Of a stretch of 41,499 nt of DNA, positions 1 through 29,036 are shown piece by piece (positions within the stretch are counted from its first letter, which is position 1; the number at the start of each line of letters is the position of its first letter). Origin of the DNA: an uncultured Anaerolineales bacterium (lineage in GTDB: Bacteria; Chloroflexota; Anaerolineae; B4-G1; DUEL01). The notes beneath the pieces were generated by a model that was given only the letters and a program-made list of their open reading frames with translations, had not been told where the DNA came from and did not search any database. The stretch is from NCBI GenBank assembly GCA_964580565.1, contig CAZOLN010000003.1:1-41499 (forward strand), read 5' to 3'. A program made the translations under genes and the position numbers.

Positions 1-284
1 CGCAGCACGGCGTCGCTGTTCAGGAGCAGGAAATACCGCCCCTGGGCCACCGCCATCGCCTGGTTGTTGGCCCGGGCGAACCCCACGTTCTCCCGGTTGA
101 CGATCAACCGGGCCTGGGGGAACCGCTCCCGCACCATCTCCGCGCTCCCGTCGGTGGAGCCGTTGTCCACCACGATGACCTCCACCGCCAGGTCCCCCGC
201 CGCCTCGTAGACGGACCTCAGGCACTGCTCCAGCAACGCCCGCGTGTTCCAACTAACCACGACGACCGAGACATCCACTCTCAT
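1..284 (-). CDS. Glycosyltransferase family 2, N-terminal part (gene runs off the left edge)
   Basis: My own reverse translation from ATG at 284 gives MRVDVSVVVVSWNTRALLEQCLRSVYEAAGDLAVEVIVVDNGSTDGSAEMVRERFPQARLIVNRENVGFARANNQAM..LLLNSDAVL, a typical GT-A/GT2 N-terminus. It is absent from the ORF track because it is truncated. ATGA overlap with the upstream stop at 281-283. Confidence 0.8.
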   Translation of the reverse strand, partial: MRVDVSVVVVSWNTRALLEQCLRSVYEAAGDLAVEVIVVDNGSTDGSAEMVRERFPQARLIVNRENVGFARANNQAMAVAQGRYFLLLNSDAVL

Positions 285-1732
285 CCCCCACTTCCCTGCT
301 TCCTTGCTTCCTCGCTTCCTTGCTTCCCTGCTTCCCCACTCCCCTCTCTCCTACTTCCCTGCTCCCTCAAGAACAACGCCTGGGCCGCCCCCAGCAGCGC
401 CCAGGTATAGACGGCGTAGTCGAACCCGGCGATGGTCTGGGTGTAGACGAAGGGGACGATCCAATCCCCCAGCGCCATCGCCACCAGCGCGCCCACGTAT
501 CCACCGACCGCGGCCAGCCCGAACGCCTCGGCGAAGTCCTGCCGCCCCTTCACCCGCCGGTACAGCCGCCAGAGGACCACGCCCGTCGCCGCCCAGAACC
601 ACAGGAAGAAGAAAAGACCCACCACGCCTGTCTGGGAGAGGACGTCGATGTAGGTGCTGTGGGAGGCCATCGCCTCCAGCGGGAAGTAATTCATGTAGTA
701 GACCGCGTAGCCCGCCGGTCCAACGCCGAAGAGCCAGTGCTCCCCCGTCACCCGCCAGTTGTGAAGCCAGGCGTCGACCCGCGTCACGCCGCTGGCGACC
801 ATCTCCTGCTGCAATTTGGCCTCCACCGCGGGGAGGTTAAAAGCGACGTACAGAGTCACCGCCACGATCAGGAGGATCAGCACCTTGCGCGAGCGCAACA
901 CCCCGATCGCCGCCAGCCCGGCCATCGCCGGCACCCAGGAGGAGAGCCAGCGGAACTGGTGGACGAAGACCTGGTAGAACCACGCCCCGGCCAGGACCAC
1001 CAGCGCCAGGCGGAGCAGCAGGGGCAACCGACGATGGAAGAACCCCAGGGCGAGGGCTAGGCAGATGAACCAGGTCGGGAAGAGCGGCCGCACCTGGAGG
1101 AAGTCCAGGTAGGGCAGGCGCAGGTAGTACCTCAGGATGGCCGCCGTCCCGACGACCAGCAGCAGGCCGACCAGGACACGGACCCACCGGGTATCTTCCT
1201 GCTGGGCCGCCACGAGGAACACCCCCGGCAGCAGGACCATCACGGCCAGCCCACCCAACTGGACGAAGGGCCAGGTGGGCCAGGGCTGCACCAGAACGTC
1301 CCGGAAGGCGATGCTCCAGGGAAGCGAGATGATGGACACCGCGACGAAGCCCAGGAGGGGTACGTTGACCGGCGAGGGCTTGAGCCGGATCTTCCGATCG
1401 GCCAGCCACTGGCTCGCCACCCACCAGGCGACGACGCCCCCCGCCAGGACCAGGCTGATGGGGATGCGGCTTCGGGTGCCGGTGGGAAGCGTGTAGCGGA
1501 TAACGGCGGCGGCAGCGATCACGCCGACGATCCCGTGTTCGATGCGCGCCCGTCCGAGACCCAGCGCCCCTACCAGAGGGAGGAACACGAACGGCAACAG
1601 CAACCAGGGACGGGCCATCCGCACGGCGATCCAGCCTACCGCCACCCCAAACGCCAACACGCCGACGACCATCCCCGCTCGCAACAGCCAGAGCCAGAGG
1701 ACGGGAAAGCGCCGCTCAACTGATGTCAACAT
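281..1732 (-). CDS. Polytopic membrane protein with O-antigen ligase / Wzy_C-type domain (ligase, polymerase or O-oligosaccharyltransferase)
   Basis: Many hydrophobic helices. Signature WLHNWRVTGEHWLFGVGPAGY...ASHSTYIDVLSQTGVVGL. Start trimmed to ATG 1732 (MLTSVERRFPVLWLW), because the longer ORF overlaps the upstream GT gene. The last ~27 codons are encoded by the octamer array. Confidence 0.7.
   Translation of the reverse strand: MLTSVERRFPVLWLWLLRAGMVVGVLAFGVAVGWIAVRMARPWLLLPFVFLPLVGALGLGRARIEHGIVGVIAAAAVIRYTLPTGTRSRIPISLVLAGGVVAWWVASQWLADRKIRLKPSPVNVPLLGFVAVSIISLPWSIAFRDVLVQPWPTWPFVQLGGLAVMVLLPGVFLVAAQQEDTRWVRVLVGLLLVVGTAAILRYYLRLPYLDFLQVRPLFPTWFICLALALGFFHRRLPLLLRLALVVLAGAWFYQVFVHQFRWLSSWVPAMAGLAAIGVLRSRKVLILLIVAVTLYVAFNLPAVEAKLQQEMVASGVTRVDAWLHNWRVTGEHWLFGVGPAGYAVYYMNYFPLEAMASHSTYIDVLSQTGVVGLFFFLWFWAATGVVLWRLYRRVKGRQDFAEAFGLAAVGGYVGALVAMALGDWIVPFVYTQTIAGFDYAVYTWALLGAAQALFLREQGSRREGSGEAGKQGSEEARKQGSGG
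291..368 (-). repeat. Octamer tandem array, CARGGAAG on the gene strand (5 clean plus about 4 degenerate units)
   Basis: Plus strand reads cttccctg cttccttg cttcctcg cttccttg cttccctg cttcccca ctcccctc... The array ends 6 nt before ATG 284. Confidence 0.85.
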
Positions 1733-2939
1733 CGTTCCACTCCGCCACGACCTGTTCCAGAAACGCCTCGAACCGCCGCCCAATCTCCCGCCAGTCGTAC
1801 CGCTCCCGCACCAACCGACGCCCGTTCCGCGCCAACCGCTCACGCAGAGCGGGGTCCTCCAGCAGCCGGACCACCTGGGCGGCGAAGGCCTCCGGCTCGT
1901 CGGCGAGCAGGATGTCCTCCCCCGGCCGGACCTCCAAGCCCTCGGCTCCCTTCGTCGTGGCGACCACGGGCACGCCCAGCGCCATTGCCTCCAGCACCTT
2001 CAGCCGGGTTCCTCCGCCCGTCGTGATTGGAACTACGCAGACCTTGCTGCGGGCGATGCGGGGGCGGACGTCCTCCAGGTAGCCGGTGAGGATCACGTTG
2101 TCGGAAAGGGGGAGACGGGCCAGATCGACCCCCTCTGTCCGACCGGTGATGAAGAGACGCACCCCCGGCCGCCGGGCTACGATTCGGGGCATCACTCCTT
2201 CCAAAAAGAATTCCATCGCCAGCAGGTTGGCGCTGTAGGTCAGCGAGCCGGGGAAGACCAGGGTATCAGGCTCCACCGGGCCAAAGTCTCCGTCATATCG
2301 TGACGGGTCGACCCCGTTGGGGATCACCACCGTCCGGTGGACCTGAGGAGCGACCTGCTCCAACGTCTCCCGCTCCAGATCCGAGGCGACGGTGCACCCT
2401 GCCACCTCGGAGAGAAGCCAAGCCGCATATCGGCGCAACTTCCACCACGTGAGCCGATGCCTCAGGCGACCCCATACCGTCCGCTGCGCCTGCATCTTGT
2501 TGTGGATCATCCGCAGTTCCACATCCTCCACCACGTGGGGTACATCGGTCCGGCCTGCCACGTAGCGGGTAGTGGTGAAGGACGGGCCAATCTCAGAGGT
2601 CACCACTACATCGTACCTCCCCCGCCCCAGTGCTTCCCCTACGAGCGCGTCCATCTCCGGGCTATAGGTCTCCCGCACCGAGCGGGGGAGAGGAGAGAGC
2701 AACCCGATGAGACTCCCCACCCTCTGGGGATGGAACGCCCGTAGCGGGGCCGTCCCCAAGAGCAGGCAACGAGCACGCAGTGCGTCGCCGACGGGCGGGA
2801 CGTCCCGCCCGTCGCGGACGAAGGCCAGCAGGTCCACCTCGTTGCAGCGAGTCAACTCCCGCAGTAGGTAGTAGGTCCGCATCCGTGCCCCGTTGTCGGG
2901 CGGCAAGGGGTACCAGGCGGCGAGGAAGAGGATGCGCAT
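1716..2939 (-). CDS. Glycosyltransferase family 4 (GT-B fold)
   Basis: MRILFLAAWYPLPPDNGARMRTYYLLREL N-terminus. C-terminal GGTRLKVLEAMALGVPVVATTKGAEGL (E-x7-E type) motif. ATG 2939 is preceded by GGAGGTGA. Confidence 0.85.
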   Translation of the reverse strand: MRILFLAAWYPLPPDNGARMRTYYLLRELTRCNEVDLLAFVRDGRDVPPVGDALRARCLLLGTAPLRAFHPQRVGSLIGLLSPLPRSVRETYSPEMDALVGEALGRGRYDVVVTSEIGPSFTTTRYVAGRTDVPHVVEDVELRMIHNKMQAQRTVWGRLRHRLTWWKLRRYAAWLLSEVAGCTVASDLERETLEQVAPQVHRTVVIPNGVDPSRYDGDFGPVEPDTLVFPGSLTYSANLLAMEFFLEGVMPRIVARRPGVRLFITGRTEGVDLARLPLSDNVILTGYLEDVRPRIARSKVCVVPITTGGGTRLKVLEAMALGVPVVATTKGAEGLEVRPGEDILLADEPEAFAAQVVRLLEDPALRERLARNGRRLVRERYDWREIGRRFEAFLEQVVAEWNDVDIS

Positions 2940-20176: not shown

Positions 20177-21417
20177 GCAGCCTCTGCTCCCTCGCTCCTT
20201 TGCTCCCTTGCTCCCTGCACCCTCCATCGATGCGGCAGGTACACCAACGCTCCCCCCTGATCGAACCGGGAGCCCACCACGAAGTGGACCGCTCCGTCGA
20301 TCTGGTCATAGGTGAGCGGAGAAAAATGGTCCCGCTTGATGCCGACGTTGACGTTGTACTCCCCGTTGAGGAGGTTCAGGCTCTCGTAGATGACCTCGGC
20401 GACCCCCTCATCCCCCGGCTCGAAGTGGCCGTGGATGTCGAACCGGGCCGTCGTGGTACCGTGGAGGATGCGGTATCCCTGACGGATGCGGGAGTAGAAG
20501 ACGGGGTCGTCCACCGGCGCGTTGGCGCGGAAGTGGATGCGCAGCCTCATCGGCTCCGCCGTCAGGAAGGAGTTGCGCGGCTCCCCCTCCCCGTCGAGCA
20601 GTTCCACCCGCGTGATCTCCATCTCCCGACCGCCCCCTCCTCGCCTATCCACCTCCCGCCGCAGCGCCTCGCCAGCGAAGCCGGTGTGGTAGAGATCCAA
20701 CGCCTCCTGGGTCTCCCCCAGGAACATCACCTTGCCCTTGTAGAGGAACAGGGTCCGATCGCACAACTTCTGGATCATCTCCTTGTTGTGAGAGACCACC
20801 ACCATCGTCTTGCCGGCATCCCGGAACTCCTGGATCCGCCGGACGCACTTATCGCGGAACATGTAATCCCCAACGGCCAGCACCTCGTCGATGAGCAGCA
20901 CGTCCGGATCCACGTGGACCGCCACGGCGAAGCCCAGTCGGACGAACATCCCGGAGGAGTACCGCTTGACCGGCATGTCGATGAACTCCTCCAGTTCGGA
21001 GAAGGCGACGATGCTGTCGAACTTCTCGTCGATCTCCCGCCGCTTCAGCCCCAGGATGGCGCCGTTGAGGTAGATGTTCTCCCGCCCGCTCAGGTCGGGA
21101 TGGAAGCCCGCGCCCAACTCGATGAGGGCGGAGACCCTGCCGCGCACCGTGATCCGCCCGCTGGTGGGGCGGGTGACCCGGGAGAGGAGTTTCAGGACGG
21201 TCGTCTTCCCCGCCCCGTTGGGGCCGATGATGCCCAGCACCTCCCCCTTCTTGACCTCAAAACTCACCCCGTCCAGCGCCCAGAGCAGGTCCCCCCGATC
21301 CTTCCCATCCCGCCCGACCACCTTGCCCAGCAGGTTCGGCAGCGCGTCCCGCAGGCTCCCCCGTCCGAACCGACGGCGGTAGGCCTTTCGCACGTTCTCA
21401 AACTCGATCGCGGCCAT
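20173..21417 (-). CDS. wzt: Polysaccharide-export ABC transporter ATP-binding protein with C-terminal Wzt_C-type carbohydrate-binding domain
   Basis: Walker A GPNGAGKTT, signature YSSGMFVRL, Walker B LLIDEVLAVGD. About 150-aa beta-rich C-terminal domain (ITRVELLDGEGEPRNSF...LNGEYNVNVGI). Start trimmed to ATG 21417 (MAAIEFENV). Confidence 0.9.
   Translation of the reverse strand: MAAIEFENVRKAYRRRFGRGSLRDALPNLLGKVVGRDGKDRGDLLWALDGVSFEVKKGEVLGIIGPNGAGKTTVLKLLSRVTRPTSGRITVRGRVSALIELGAGFHPDLSGRENIYLNGAILGLKRREIDEKFDSIVAFSELEEFIDMPVKRYSSGMFVRLGFAVAVHVDPDVLLIDEVLAVGDYMFRDKCVRRIQEFRDAGKTMVVVSHNKEMIQKLCDRTLFLYKGKVMFLGETQEALDLYHTGFAGEALRREVDRRGGGGREMEITRVELLDGEGEPRNSFLTAEPMRLRIHFRANAPVDDPVFYSRIRQGYRILHGTTTARFDIHGHFEPGDEGVAEVIYESLNLLNGEYNVNVGIKRDHFSPLTYDQIDGAVHFVVGSRFDQGGALVYLPHRWRVQGAREQRSEGAEAA
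20186..20225 (-). repeat. Octamer tandem array x5, RAGGGAGC on the gene strand
   Basis: Plus strand reads gctccctc gctccttt gctccctt gctccctg caccctcc. Lies directly upstream of ATG 20176. Confidence 0.8.
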
Positions 21418-27947: not shown

Positions 27948-29036
27948 AGCGAGGCGGGTGACGAGCGGCAGGTACAGCGCAGCACCCCCGGCGAGGGGGA
28001 TCCGCTCCACAAGGGTGTACGGTCCGCCCGCCCCGTCGTCCCGATAGGTCTCCAGCACAACGAAGTCGTCCTCAACCCGGATAACGAGAAAGGTGCTGGG
28101 GGCTCCTCGATCCCCCTTTCCACGGGCGTGCCCGGCGTCCAGTTGCCAGACCCCGTCGATGCGCACCGCGCTGTAGTTGTGCGTGTGCCCGCAGATGTAG
28201 GCCACCACGCCGTGGGCCGCCAGGAGGTCCCAAAACCGATCTCGGTTCGCCGGATGAGCGTCGAGGCTGTCGCCGACGTGTCGCTCCCGCCCCGTCTCCG
28301 CGTCCGGCTGCGGGAAGGCCGGCTCGTGGCCGAAGACGAAGATGTAGGGCCGGTCGGTCGCCTGCAGGTCCGCCGCCAACCACTCGTAGAGGTGGTCGGG
28401 AAGGTCCCCATCGGTCGCCATCGGCCCGCCGACGTCGCAGTAGACGTTGAGCATCACCAGGTGGGCAGCGCCGTAGTCGAACGAGTAGGTCGTCGTCGGG
28501 CAGCCGGAGGGGCCGGGGTTCACCGGGCCGTAGTCGTACGCCTGGAGCCAGGCCACGTCGTCGGGGGTCTCCACCTCGTGGTTGCCGACGCCGGGATACC
28601 ACGGGAAGTCGGCCCCAAGGGTCTGGGAGAGGGTCCACTGCACCCCCAGCGGCGGATCGACGTCGCCGGGGCTGACCATGAAGGCCACGTCGCCCAGGGC
28701 GGCGATGGCCTCGCACGCCCCGCGGAAGTAGTGGACGGAGTCGTAGAGGCCCGGCCCTGCGTACTGCCGCATATCGGCAGCGACGGCGAAGGCGAAGGAG
28801 GAAGAGGGGGAGAGAGGGGAGAGAGGAGACAAGGGGACAGGGGGAGAAGGAGGAACCGTGGGAGAGGATACGGCAGGAGGACGAGCTGTAGGGGCGAGGG
28901 TGGGAGAGGCGGTGGGAGAGGTGATAGGGGGAGCAGCAGGAACGGCAGCGCAGGCAACCCCGAGCAAGAGGAGCGACAGCAAGATCGACGACGGGGTCAG
29001 GCCGAGCACCCTCCCCAACCGGTGGAGTCCCTTCAC
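27930..29036 (-). CDS. Secreted or anchored calcineurin-like metallophosphoesterase
   Basis: Signal/anchor ILLSLLLLGVACAAV and a Pro/Ser-rich linker, then SPGDVD, GVGNHE, VFGHEP, ICGHTHN motifs. GTG 29036 follows GGAGGAGG. The stop lies inside the heptamer array. Confidence 0.8.
   Translation of the reverse strand: MKGLHRLGRVLGLTPSSILLSLLLLGVACAAVPAAPPITSPTASPTLAPTARPPAVSSPTVPPSPPVPLSPLSPLSPSSSFAFAVAADMRQYAGPGLYDSVHYFRGACEAIAALGDVAFMVSPGDVDPPLGVQWTLSQTLGADFPWYPGVGNHEVETPDDVAWLQAYDYGPVNPGPSGCPTTTYSFDYGAAHLVMLNVYCDVGGPMATDGDLPDHLYEWLAADLQATDRPYIFVFGHEPAFPQPDAETGRERHVGDSLDAHPANRDRFWDLLAAHGVVAYICGHTHNYSAVRIDGVWQLDAGHARGKGDRGAPSTFLVIRVEDDFVVLETYRDDGAGGPYTLVERIPLAGGAALYLPLVTRLALTPDA

Follow-up and report, generated by a model that had tools for sequence, protein, structure and literature searches.

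Is the tandem array of purine-rich octamers at the junction of two polysaccharide genes in a hot-spring Thermoflexia bacterium a Shine-Dalgarno (SD) sequence that was amplified for a function, or a repeat that grew there and was tolerated? The array lies on the minus strand of the window, which is the 41,499-nucleotide (nt) contig C3 (CAZOLN010000003.1) of a 2.74-Mb, 230-contig metagenome-assembled genome (MAG; G000). It sits between the gene of a Wzy_C/O-antigen-ligase-family membrane protein (Wzy) and that of a family-2 glycosyltransferase (GT2). A sequence-only reading of this DNA had described CARGGAAG units that resemble an amplified ribosome-binding site (RBS) and are translated as a protein tail. 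The array is probably a hypervariable octamer simple sequence repeat (SSR), or variable-number tandem repeat, which would have been seeded on the RBS of GT2 within the 3' end of the Wzy gene and expanded by slipped-strand mispairing.

The repeat and its alleles

On the gene strand the Wzy-GT2 junction reads ..TTCTTGAGGGAGC AGGGAAGT AGGAGAGA GGGGAGTG GGGAAGCA GGGAAGCA AGGAAGCG AGGAAGCA AGGAAGCA GGGAAGTG GGGG ATGA, so that the array is present as it had been quoted. Tandem Repeats Finder (TRF) places it at 291-367, with a period of 8, 9.9 copies, 78% matches, and a score of 70. The two-unit pattern CRRGGAAGCRRGGAAG, with at most one mismatch, has six occurrences in the whole window, five of which lie in the array. 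In dinucleotide-preserving shuffles of the whole window its mean count is 0.03, and none of the 100 shuffles reaches six. The longest Wzy_C open reading frame (ORF; 281..1843, minus strand; Pfam Wzy_C match, E 4.5e-8) runs through the array to the TGA at 281-283 and ends in ..EQGSRREGSGEAGKQGSEEARKQGSGG*, again as had been read from the sequence. The array lies downstream of GFDYAVYTW.., the last conserved segment of Wzy_C, and encodes the last ~27 codons. The clean units, stated to contain no T, are the five 3' units (291-330); the older 5' units carry three T's, including an out-of-frame TAG.

A protein search returned near-identical Wzy proteins of 467, 472, 483, and 495 amino acids in one 90% cluster, and the DNA of the strains was compared with the window. 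Two strains, L122 (ENA ERZ27248139; 99.5% nt identity over 3.2 kb) and L126 (JGI 3300033156; 99.3% identity), are each longer by exactly 8 nt, one extra unit, with a slightly different unit order. In both, the Wzy frame is shifted, passes the ATGA, and ends at a TAG 29 nt inside GT2 with the tail ..KEARK(R/Q)GSREVGDESGCLGRRG; the SD and the start codon of GT2 are retained. A further strain, L125 (ENA ERZ27248120; 99.8% identity), lacks 61 nt between GAGTG microhomologies, including all clean units and the GT2 ATG, and its Wzy stop is also the TAG 29 nt inside GT2. The distance between fixed anchors is 85 nt in the window, 93 nt in both L122 and L126, and 24 nt in L125. The Wzy_C core is complete in all alleles. 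Termination at the ATGA is not obligatory, and the earlier statement that the Wzy ORF ends only there does not hold for these three strains. No Wzy-GT2 fusion allele was found among the homologues listed or the proteins read. In the L125 assembly (L125:2560-2640) the called GT2 start is a GTG two codons downstream, after GGAGAGAGGGGA, which is an assembly-level call.

The clean units are the young, polymorphic part of the array, where sister strains have six units or none. The degenerate units are common to the sister species and hold the GAGTG that forms one end of the 61-nt deletion. In the sister species itself (P0002 cluster, 88% identity), the units are degenerate and one invariant tail is found in five members on ten contigs. 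Pure repeats vary and interrupted repeats stay fixed, which is the behaviour expected of an SSR. The possibility of a conserved functional tail was rejected, as its length, frame, and sequence differ among strains and species and no tail is present outside the genus. By this comparison, the tail is clearly not under amino-acid selection. Its lack of conservation in the protein fits a repeat at the nucleotide level and lends no support to a function.

The Wzy-GT2 pair is conserved in the family and the order, and the array is found only within the genus. The ATGA overlap is kept in the two congeners, G001 ('Thermoflexia bacterium isolate J88') and G002, and in the P0002 species. The Wzy proteins of G001 and G002 are 93% and 74% identical to that of the window, respectively. 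The congener junctions have ~5 units or degenerate units, and overall ~3, 5, 10, or 11 units are found across strains and congeners. The GFDYA motif is separated from the Wzy stop by 144 nt in the window, compared with 96 nt in G001, 129 nt in G002, and 75-84 nt in the array-less outgroups. A comparison of unit number across related genomes, which had been proposed as a check, therefore shows variation at both levels, with +8 or -61 nt among strains and 96, 129, or 144 nt among congeners. Orthologous purine arrays are ~75% identical, compared with 87-97% in their coding flanks.

In genera outside this one, the same gene pair lacks the array, and overlapping junctions (GTGA or ATGGCTGA) are seen in outgroups. 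The Wzy gene of outgroup L011 ends in ..AGAAGGAACACGAGTGA, with a GTGA overlap and a single AAGGAA at SD distance where the array sits in the window; outgroup L022 has the ATGGCTGA overlap, and in L004 Wzy ends in TAA. A distant homologue (P0004; 83% identity in the C-terminal region) ends in ..AHIVAREEPRRLA-TAG without a purine array. The outgroup overlaps and the single AAGGAA suggest that the ancestral junction was tight and overlapping, with the SD of GT2 within the last Wzy codons, and the array is probably an in-situ expansion of that SD-bearing stretch. The absence of the array from orthologues with unchanged gene spacing and expression had been named as a refuting observation. Genera outside the genus do keep a tight junction without the array, which weakens the idea of an RBS amplifier that is needed and selected. 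In the P0004 species (L124:2908-2965), an unrelated GTTGCTT/GTTGCTG heptamer array lies directly after the Wzy TAG and reaches the contig end; therefore, different satellites occupy the Wzy-GT2 junction in different lineages.

A strand-locked class of satellites

A census of the whole MAG by TRF (period 6-10, at least three copies) gave 272 arrays, 63 of which belong to the purine-rich GCARGRR class, defined by a composition criterion; the other unit families are TGACGYW, CAGGATG, AACCTGA, CCTGCGA, and GGTGAYTG. The array is an ordinary member of this genome-wide satellite population, not the functional opposite of stop-bearing heptamers as had been supposed. A codon model trained on G000 was used to assign a coding strand to the 240-nt flanks of each array. 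Gene calls came from a crude in-house model that misses about one quarter of genes, and their use was limited to the codon model and the baseline, in which 80% of neighbouring gene pairs are co-directional. Arrays of all classes lie at 134 co-directional junctions versus 9 convergent or divergent ones (Fisher p = 1.6e-5 against that baseline).

Between co-directional genes, the purine class is on the mRNA sense strand in 27 cases and antisense in 2 (binomial p = 1.6e-6). Ten purine arrays in ~545 kb of G001 (5:1 sense) and five in 195 kb of G002 (4:0) bring the pooled ratio over the three genomes to 36:3. Both orientations occur in other unit families, such as ACGTTTG/AAACGTC (7:5). Separately, a second strand-locked family was noted, the ATTGGGTG/GGTGATTG octamers (6:0 sense), as well as ACTGGGTG (4:2). 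Satellites of 7-9 nt also occur in four further genera of the family, where the units are different and the purine class is essentially missing; satellite density in the sampled relatives is 1-12 per 100 kb.

Of the 63 purine arrays, 23 end 0-27 nt upstream of a start codon, and on inspection their terminal unit mostly provides GGAG, AGGA, or AAGG at SD distance. A first test of start-codon proximity gave a weak contrast (37% of the purine class versus 30% of other arrays), and the flank-based strand test is the more informative one. Where a purine array follows an upstream sense gene (34 cases), 19 start just past the stop codon, 4 contain it, and 11 are read through. Read-through, as seen at the Wzy-GT2 junction, is therefore found in a minority of cases and reflects the chance position of the stop. 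G001 and G002 also carry arrays at the junction orthologous to that of the second purine array of the window (20185-20216).

Several other arrays may be mentioned. Three purine arrays (C70:8717-8754, C30:9483-9529, and C46:15976-16016) are read through by ORFs that then stay open for 490-1836 nt more, which are apparent in-frame gene fusions or array-encoded linkers in long proteins. At C159:3290-3360, C40:15-74, and C100:1761-1830, a pyrimidine array (e.g. cttcctggctccctcgcttcc) adjoins a complementary purine array, and long repeat-armed hairpins are possible in these composite elements. In the window, a G-rich AGAGAGGGG array of ~5 units lies on the plus strand at 28803-28847, where the crude gene model puts an ORF on the minus strand.

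Shine-Dalgarno likeness of the units

Pairing was evaluated against the anti-SD sequence CACCUCCUUU, which was assumed to be canonical as a 16S gene is lacking in the MAG. Among the 167 reliable [AG]TGA junctions, the pentamer that predominates at positions -12 to -3 is GGAGG (86 junctions), so the assumption is a fair one. Across the ten 8-nt steps of the array, the duplexes range from -5.2 to -9.1 kcal/mol, compared with a median of -9.5 kcal/mol for genuine SDs in G000. All ~10 steps reach -5 kcal/mol; the mean for 84-nt windows drawn at random from the genome is 3.4 of 10. The units are moderately SD-like and weaker than genuine SDs. Only the last unit has SD spacing (~5-10 nt), and the others lie 16-80 nt upstream of the ATG; to judge from its sequence and position, the last unit is probably the working SD of GT2.

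The single-copy SD regions to which the units had been likened are both present, AAGGAGCAGGGA before ATG 8297 and GAAGGAGCGAG before GTG 12526. As an account of origin, an amplified SD finds support in the SD-like units, in the single AAGGAA of L011, and in the same architecture at 20185-20216 and at other places in the genome. As an account of function, with ribosomes standing by or stacking on the array, it is unsupported because unit number varies freely, a deletion allele exists, and orthologues do without the array.

Proposed origin and alternative explanations

A proposed origin of the array can be described as follows. In the ancestral overlap, the purine-rich RBS of GT2 would have lain inside the last codons of Wzy_C, and because of this position each duplication of the SD octamer would lengthen the Wzy ORF. 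Clean units contain no T and therefore cannot form a stop codon; their purine codons would yield only Gly, Glu, Lys, Arg, Ser, Ala, and Gln. The resulting tail, placed after the last membrane segment, would be harmless, hydrophilic, disordered, and of cytoplasmic type, and would be tolerated rather than selected. Expansion would be tolerated since the units bring no stops, the tail is hydrophilic, and the sense orientation keeps anti-SD-like pyrimidine runs out of the mRNA. The last unit would serve GT2 as its SD, and the units upstream would be near-neutral, adding at most weak contacts with the 30S subunit and an unstructured run-up. The array belongs to a genus-specific class of GCARGRR 7/8-mers, itself a subset of a family-wide tendency to build satellites of 7-9-nt units at co-directional junctions. 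An SD origin would explain why arrays of the purine class are almost always in sense, a bias that may be strengthened by selection against pyrimidine, anti-SD-like arrays in mRNA. The encoded protein tail is a by-product.

Several observations weigh against this explanation. The sense lock is equally expected from positive selection for a function at the mRNA level. Most substitutions between orthologous arrays are exchanges of A and G, by which the purine-only character is kept, a possible sign of constraint. Arrays are present at both window junctions in all three sampled congeners, with the G002 Wzy only 74% identical, and such persistence could reflect selection instead of continuous turnover. 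In addition, the anti-SD is assumed to be canonical from the GGAGG enrichment, and the strain alleles are taken from short-read metagenome assemblies.

It is possible, although unlikely, that the array is a selected translational element, a putative multi-SD standby or loading platform with an unstructured purine leader, which would raise or stabilise GT2 initiation or the coupling of termination and reinitiation on the GC-rich mRNA of a thermophile. The pairing of every unit with the assumed anti-SD (-5 to -9 kcal/mol, with ~10 steps at -5 against a background mean of 3.4), the 27:2 sense lock of arrays that end at start codons, their retention at two orthologous junctions in three species, the predicted unpaired state of the region, and a published analogue, the forward TAACTGA repeats abutting start codons in Beggiatoaceae (PMC4679880), are all consistent with such a platform. 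However, the number of units is unconstrained, the near-identical strain L125 has neither clean units nor the ATG, the same gene pair has no array outside the genus, and the units are weaker than the normal GGAGG-type SDs; moreover, a start codon adjoins only about half of the purine arrays, and an SD origin without function predicts the sense lock and the start proximity equally well. A contingency locus, in which gain and loss of units would stochastically modulate GT2 and hence the surface glycan, is very unlikely. Since 8 nt is not a multiple of three, each gain or loss shifts the Wzy stop, and three states are predicted for this putative phase-variation locus: a stop at the ATGA overlap, a stop at the TAG 29 nt into GT2, and read-through that fuses Wzy to GT2 in frame. 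The unit does lie inside a surface-polysaccharide cluster, two of the three states are present among strains at least 99.3% identical, and the third frame continues into the GT2 frame. On the other hand, the repeat is past the last conserved Wzy_C segment so that Wzy is switched off in no frame, the +1-unit alleles keep the GT2 start signals intact, the fusion state is missing among the listed homologues and the proteins read, and like arrays at dozens of unrelated gene junctions suggest a mutational propensity, not a dedicated switch.

It is highly improbable that the array is a structural or protein-binding element, either a G-quadruplex in RNA or DNA or a set of GGA sites to which a CsrA-like regulator would bind. 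A canonical four-run G3 motif lies directly upstream of the ATG in G001, and every unit contains GGA. However, no canonical quadruplex sequence (at least four G3 runs, loops of at most 7 nt) was found in the arrays of the window, L122, L123, or G002, and with such motifs in 7 of 53 purine arrays the G-quadruplex was rejected as a property of the class. A CsrA sponge, suggested also by the likeness of the CAGGATG arrays to CsrB repeats, was rejected since a search of 26 related genomes found CsrA (PF02599) in none, with E. coli, B. subtilis, and T. maritima positive as controls. No Rfam family matched at E <= 1 in window 1-1200. Folding of the junction RNA is no better than that of shuffled sequences (z = +1.05), and a stable structure was rejected on this basis; the array is mostly unpaired in the centroid. 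An assembly artefact of a repetitive region might be suspected in a MAG of 230 contigs with the array 290 nt from a contig end; it is barely credible and was rejected, as the array is shorter than a read and was recovered in six independent assemblies (NCBI, ENA, JGI, Logan) with colinear flanks.

Genes and coordinates

The features of the junction are listed in Table 1. The N-terminus of GT2, MRVDVSVVVVSWNT, aligns with the starts of its orthologues. The ORF from GTG 1843 (520 amino acids) over-extends Wzy_C, as the database protein of the same contig and the closest homologues begin with MLTSVERRF. The Wzy_C ATG at 1732 overlaps the end of an upstream GT4-type glycosyltransferase gene by 17 nt (window 1716-1732, minus strand).

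Table 1. Features of the Wzy-GT2 junction and of a second purine array in the window.
Feature	Position	Strand	Basis
Octamer tandem array, ~10 units; consensus CAGGGAAG (gene strand), CTTCCCTG (plus strand)	291..367	minus	TRF, sequence, pattern versus shuffles
Five clean T-free units CAGGGAAG CAAGGAAG CGAGGAAG CAAGGAAG CAGGGAAG	291..330	minus	Exact pattern matches, strain alignment
Degenerate older units GAGC AGGGAAGT AGGAGAGA GGGGAGTG GGGAAG..	331..368	minus	Sequence, strain alignment
Last unit core AGGGAAG, 8 nt between AGGGA and ATG (probable SD of GT2)	291..297	minus	Sequence, anti-SD duplex profile
Partial unit TGGGGG, spacer between array and start codon	285..290	minus	Sequence
ATGA overlap (GT2 ATG 284-282, Wzy_C TGA 283-281)	281..284	minus	ORF list
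Wzy_C/O-antigen-ligase-family membrane protein gene, 483 amino acids from MLTSVERRF	281..1732	minus	Pfam PF04932; database protein P0124 (483 amino acids, same contig)
GT2 gene, 5' part, runs past window edge	3..284	minus	Pfam PF00535 (Glycos_transf_2), E 5e-22
Sister purine array AGGGAGCA x4	20185..20216	minus	Upstream ORF reads through, then ATGA overlap; same architecture

Implications

The array is modestly interesting for the sense-strand lock of its class and for a one-unit allele that relocates a stop codon. Amplification of 7-9-nt units throughout the lineage reshapes tight operon junctions. An RBS seed within the last codons of the upstream gene would give a stop-free array, a longer upstream protein, and a stop that moves with a change of one unit. 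For annotation, a repeat of this kind would account for low-complexity G/S/E/K/R tails in Thermoflexia MAGs, for the orthologue lengths of 467, 472, 483, and 495 amino acids, and for apparent frameshifts and fusions.

The pooled strand ratio of 36:3 is a clean signal that the retention of satellites is decided either by an SD-seeded origin or by selection at the mRNA level. Should additional SD-like units tune initiation in a thermophile, the junction would be a simple natural system for the study of standby sites. It is quite unlikely that the genus as a whole carries selected, sense-strand, stop-free, SD-like purine satellites as putative tunable ribosome-loading platforms at operon junctions. 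If it did, the strength of translational coupling would depend on unit number and frame, and neighbouring genes could occasionally be fused, as the three arrays read through for 490-1836 nt suggest; the surface-glycan cluster would then have a fast-evolving post-transcriptional rheostat.

Comparison with known systems

Cyanobacterial short tandemly repeated repetitive (STRR) sequences are genome-wide families of 7-nt tandem repeats in the intergenic spacers of one lineage, with other units and in another phylum. To our knowledge, neither SD likeness nor a strand lock has been described for them. Among the repeats that cause phase variation of glycan genes, octanucleotide repeats act in the lipooligosaccharide gene losA of Haemophilus influenzae. 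The present array resembles such systems in its unit, which is not a multiple of three, its place in a polysaccharide cluster, its strain-variable number, and the frame shift. It differs in lying at the extreme 3' end of the gene, where a change in unit number alters nothing but the tail and the position of the stop and turns no gene off; a frame-altering change in unit number between strains was found, and on/off switching of a product was not. Tetranucleotide repeats are the SSRs described for H. influenzae in PMC2651432. A literature search on Thermoflexus and tandem repeats returned nothing relevant.

In function and position, the nearest counterparts of the array are the TAACTGA heptamers, which occur as direct repeats in marine Beggiatoaceae, some Cyanobacteria, and Bacteroidetes and for which a role in translational regulation has been proposed (MacGregor 2015, PMC4679880). 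Both appear in forward orientation, abut start codons and in some cases overlap the end of the upstream ORF, and show unit-length indels between close strains (7 nt there, 8 nt here). In the purine class, the forward, start-proximal orientation is found (27:2; 23 of 63), and a stop-bearing, SD-poor unit is not: the TAACTGA repeats contain a stop in forward orientation and have little SD character, whereas the CARGGAAG units are stop-free and SD-like. Their arrays have 2-6 units versus up to ~11 here, and the lineage here is Thermoflexia, in the Chloroflexota.

The broader comparison is with the long SSRs of prokaryotes, which have 5-11-nt units (Mrazek et al. 2007, as summarised in PMC4679880). 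As in that summary, short units here are arranged head to tail far beyond the length expected by chance, their number varies among strains, and they are abundant in scattered lineages, mainly outside conserved coding sequence. Tandem copies, a length beyond chance, unit-number polymorphism, and a genome-wide excess are all found for this array with its 8-nt unit. The present case differs in having a purine-rich, SD-like unit class that lies almost wholly on the mRNA strand, and in the translation of this copy into a C-terminal tail. Overall, the array is mechanistically ordinary, a lineage-specific case of the known long-SSR kind.

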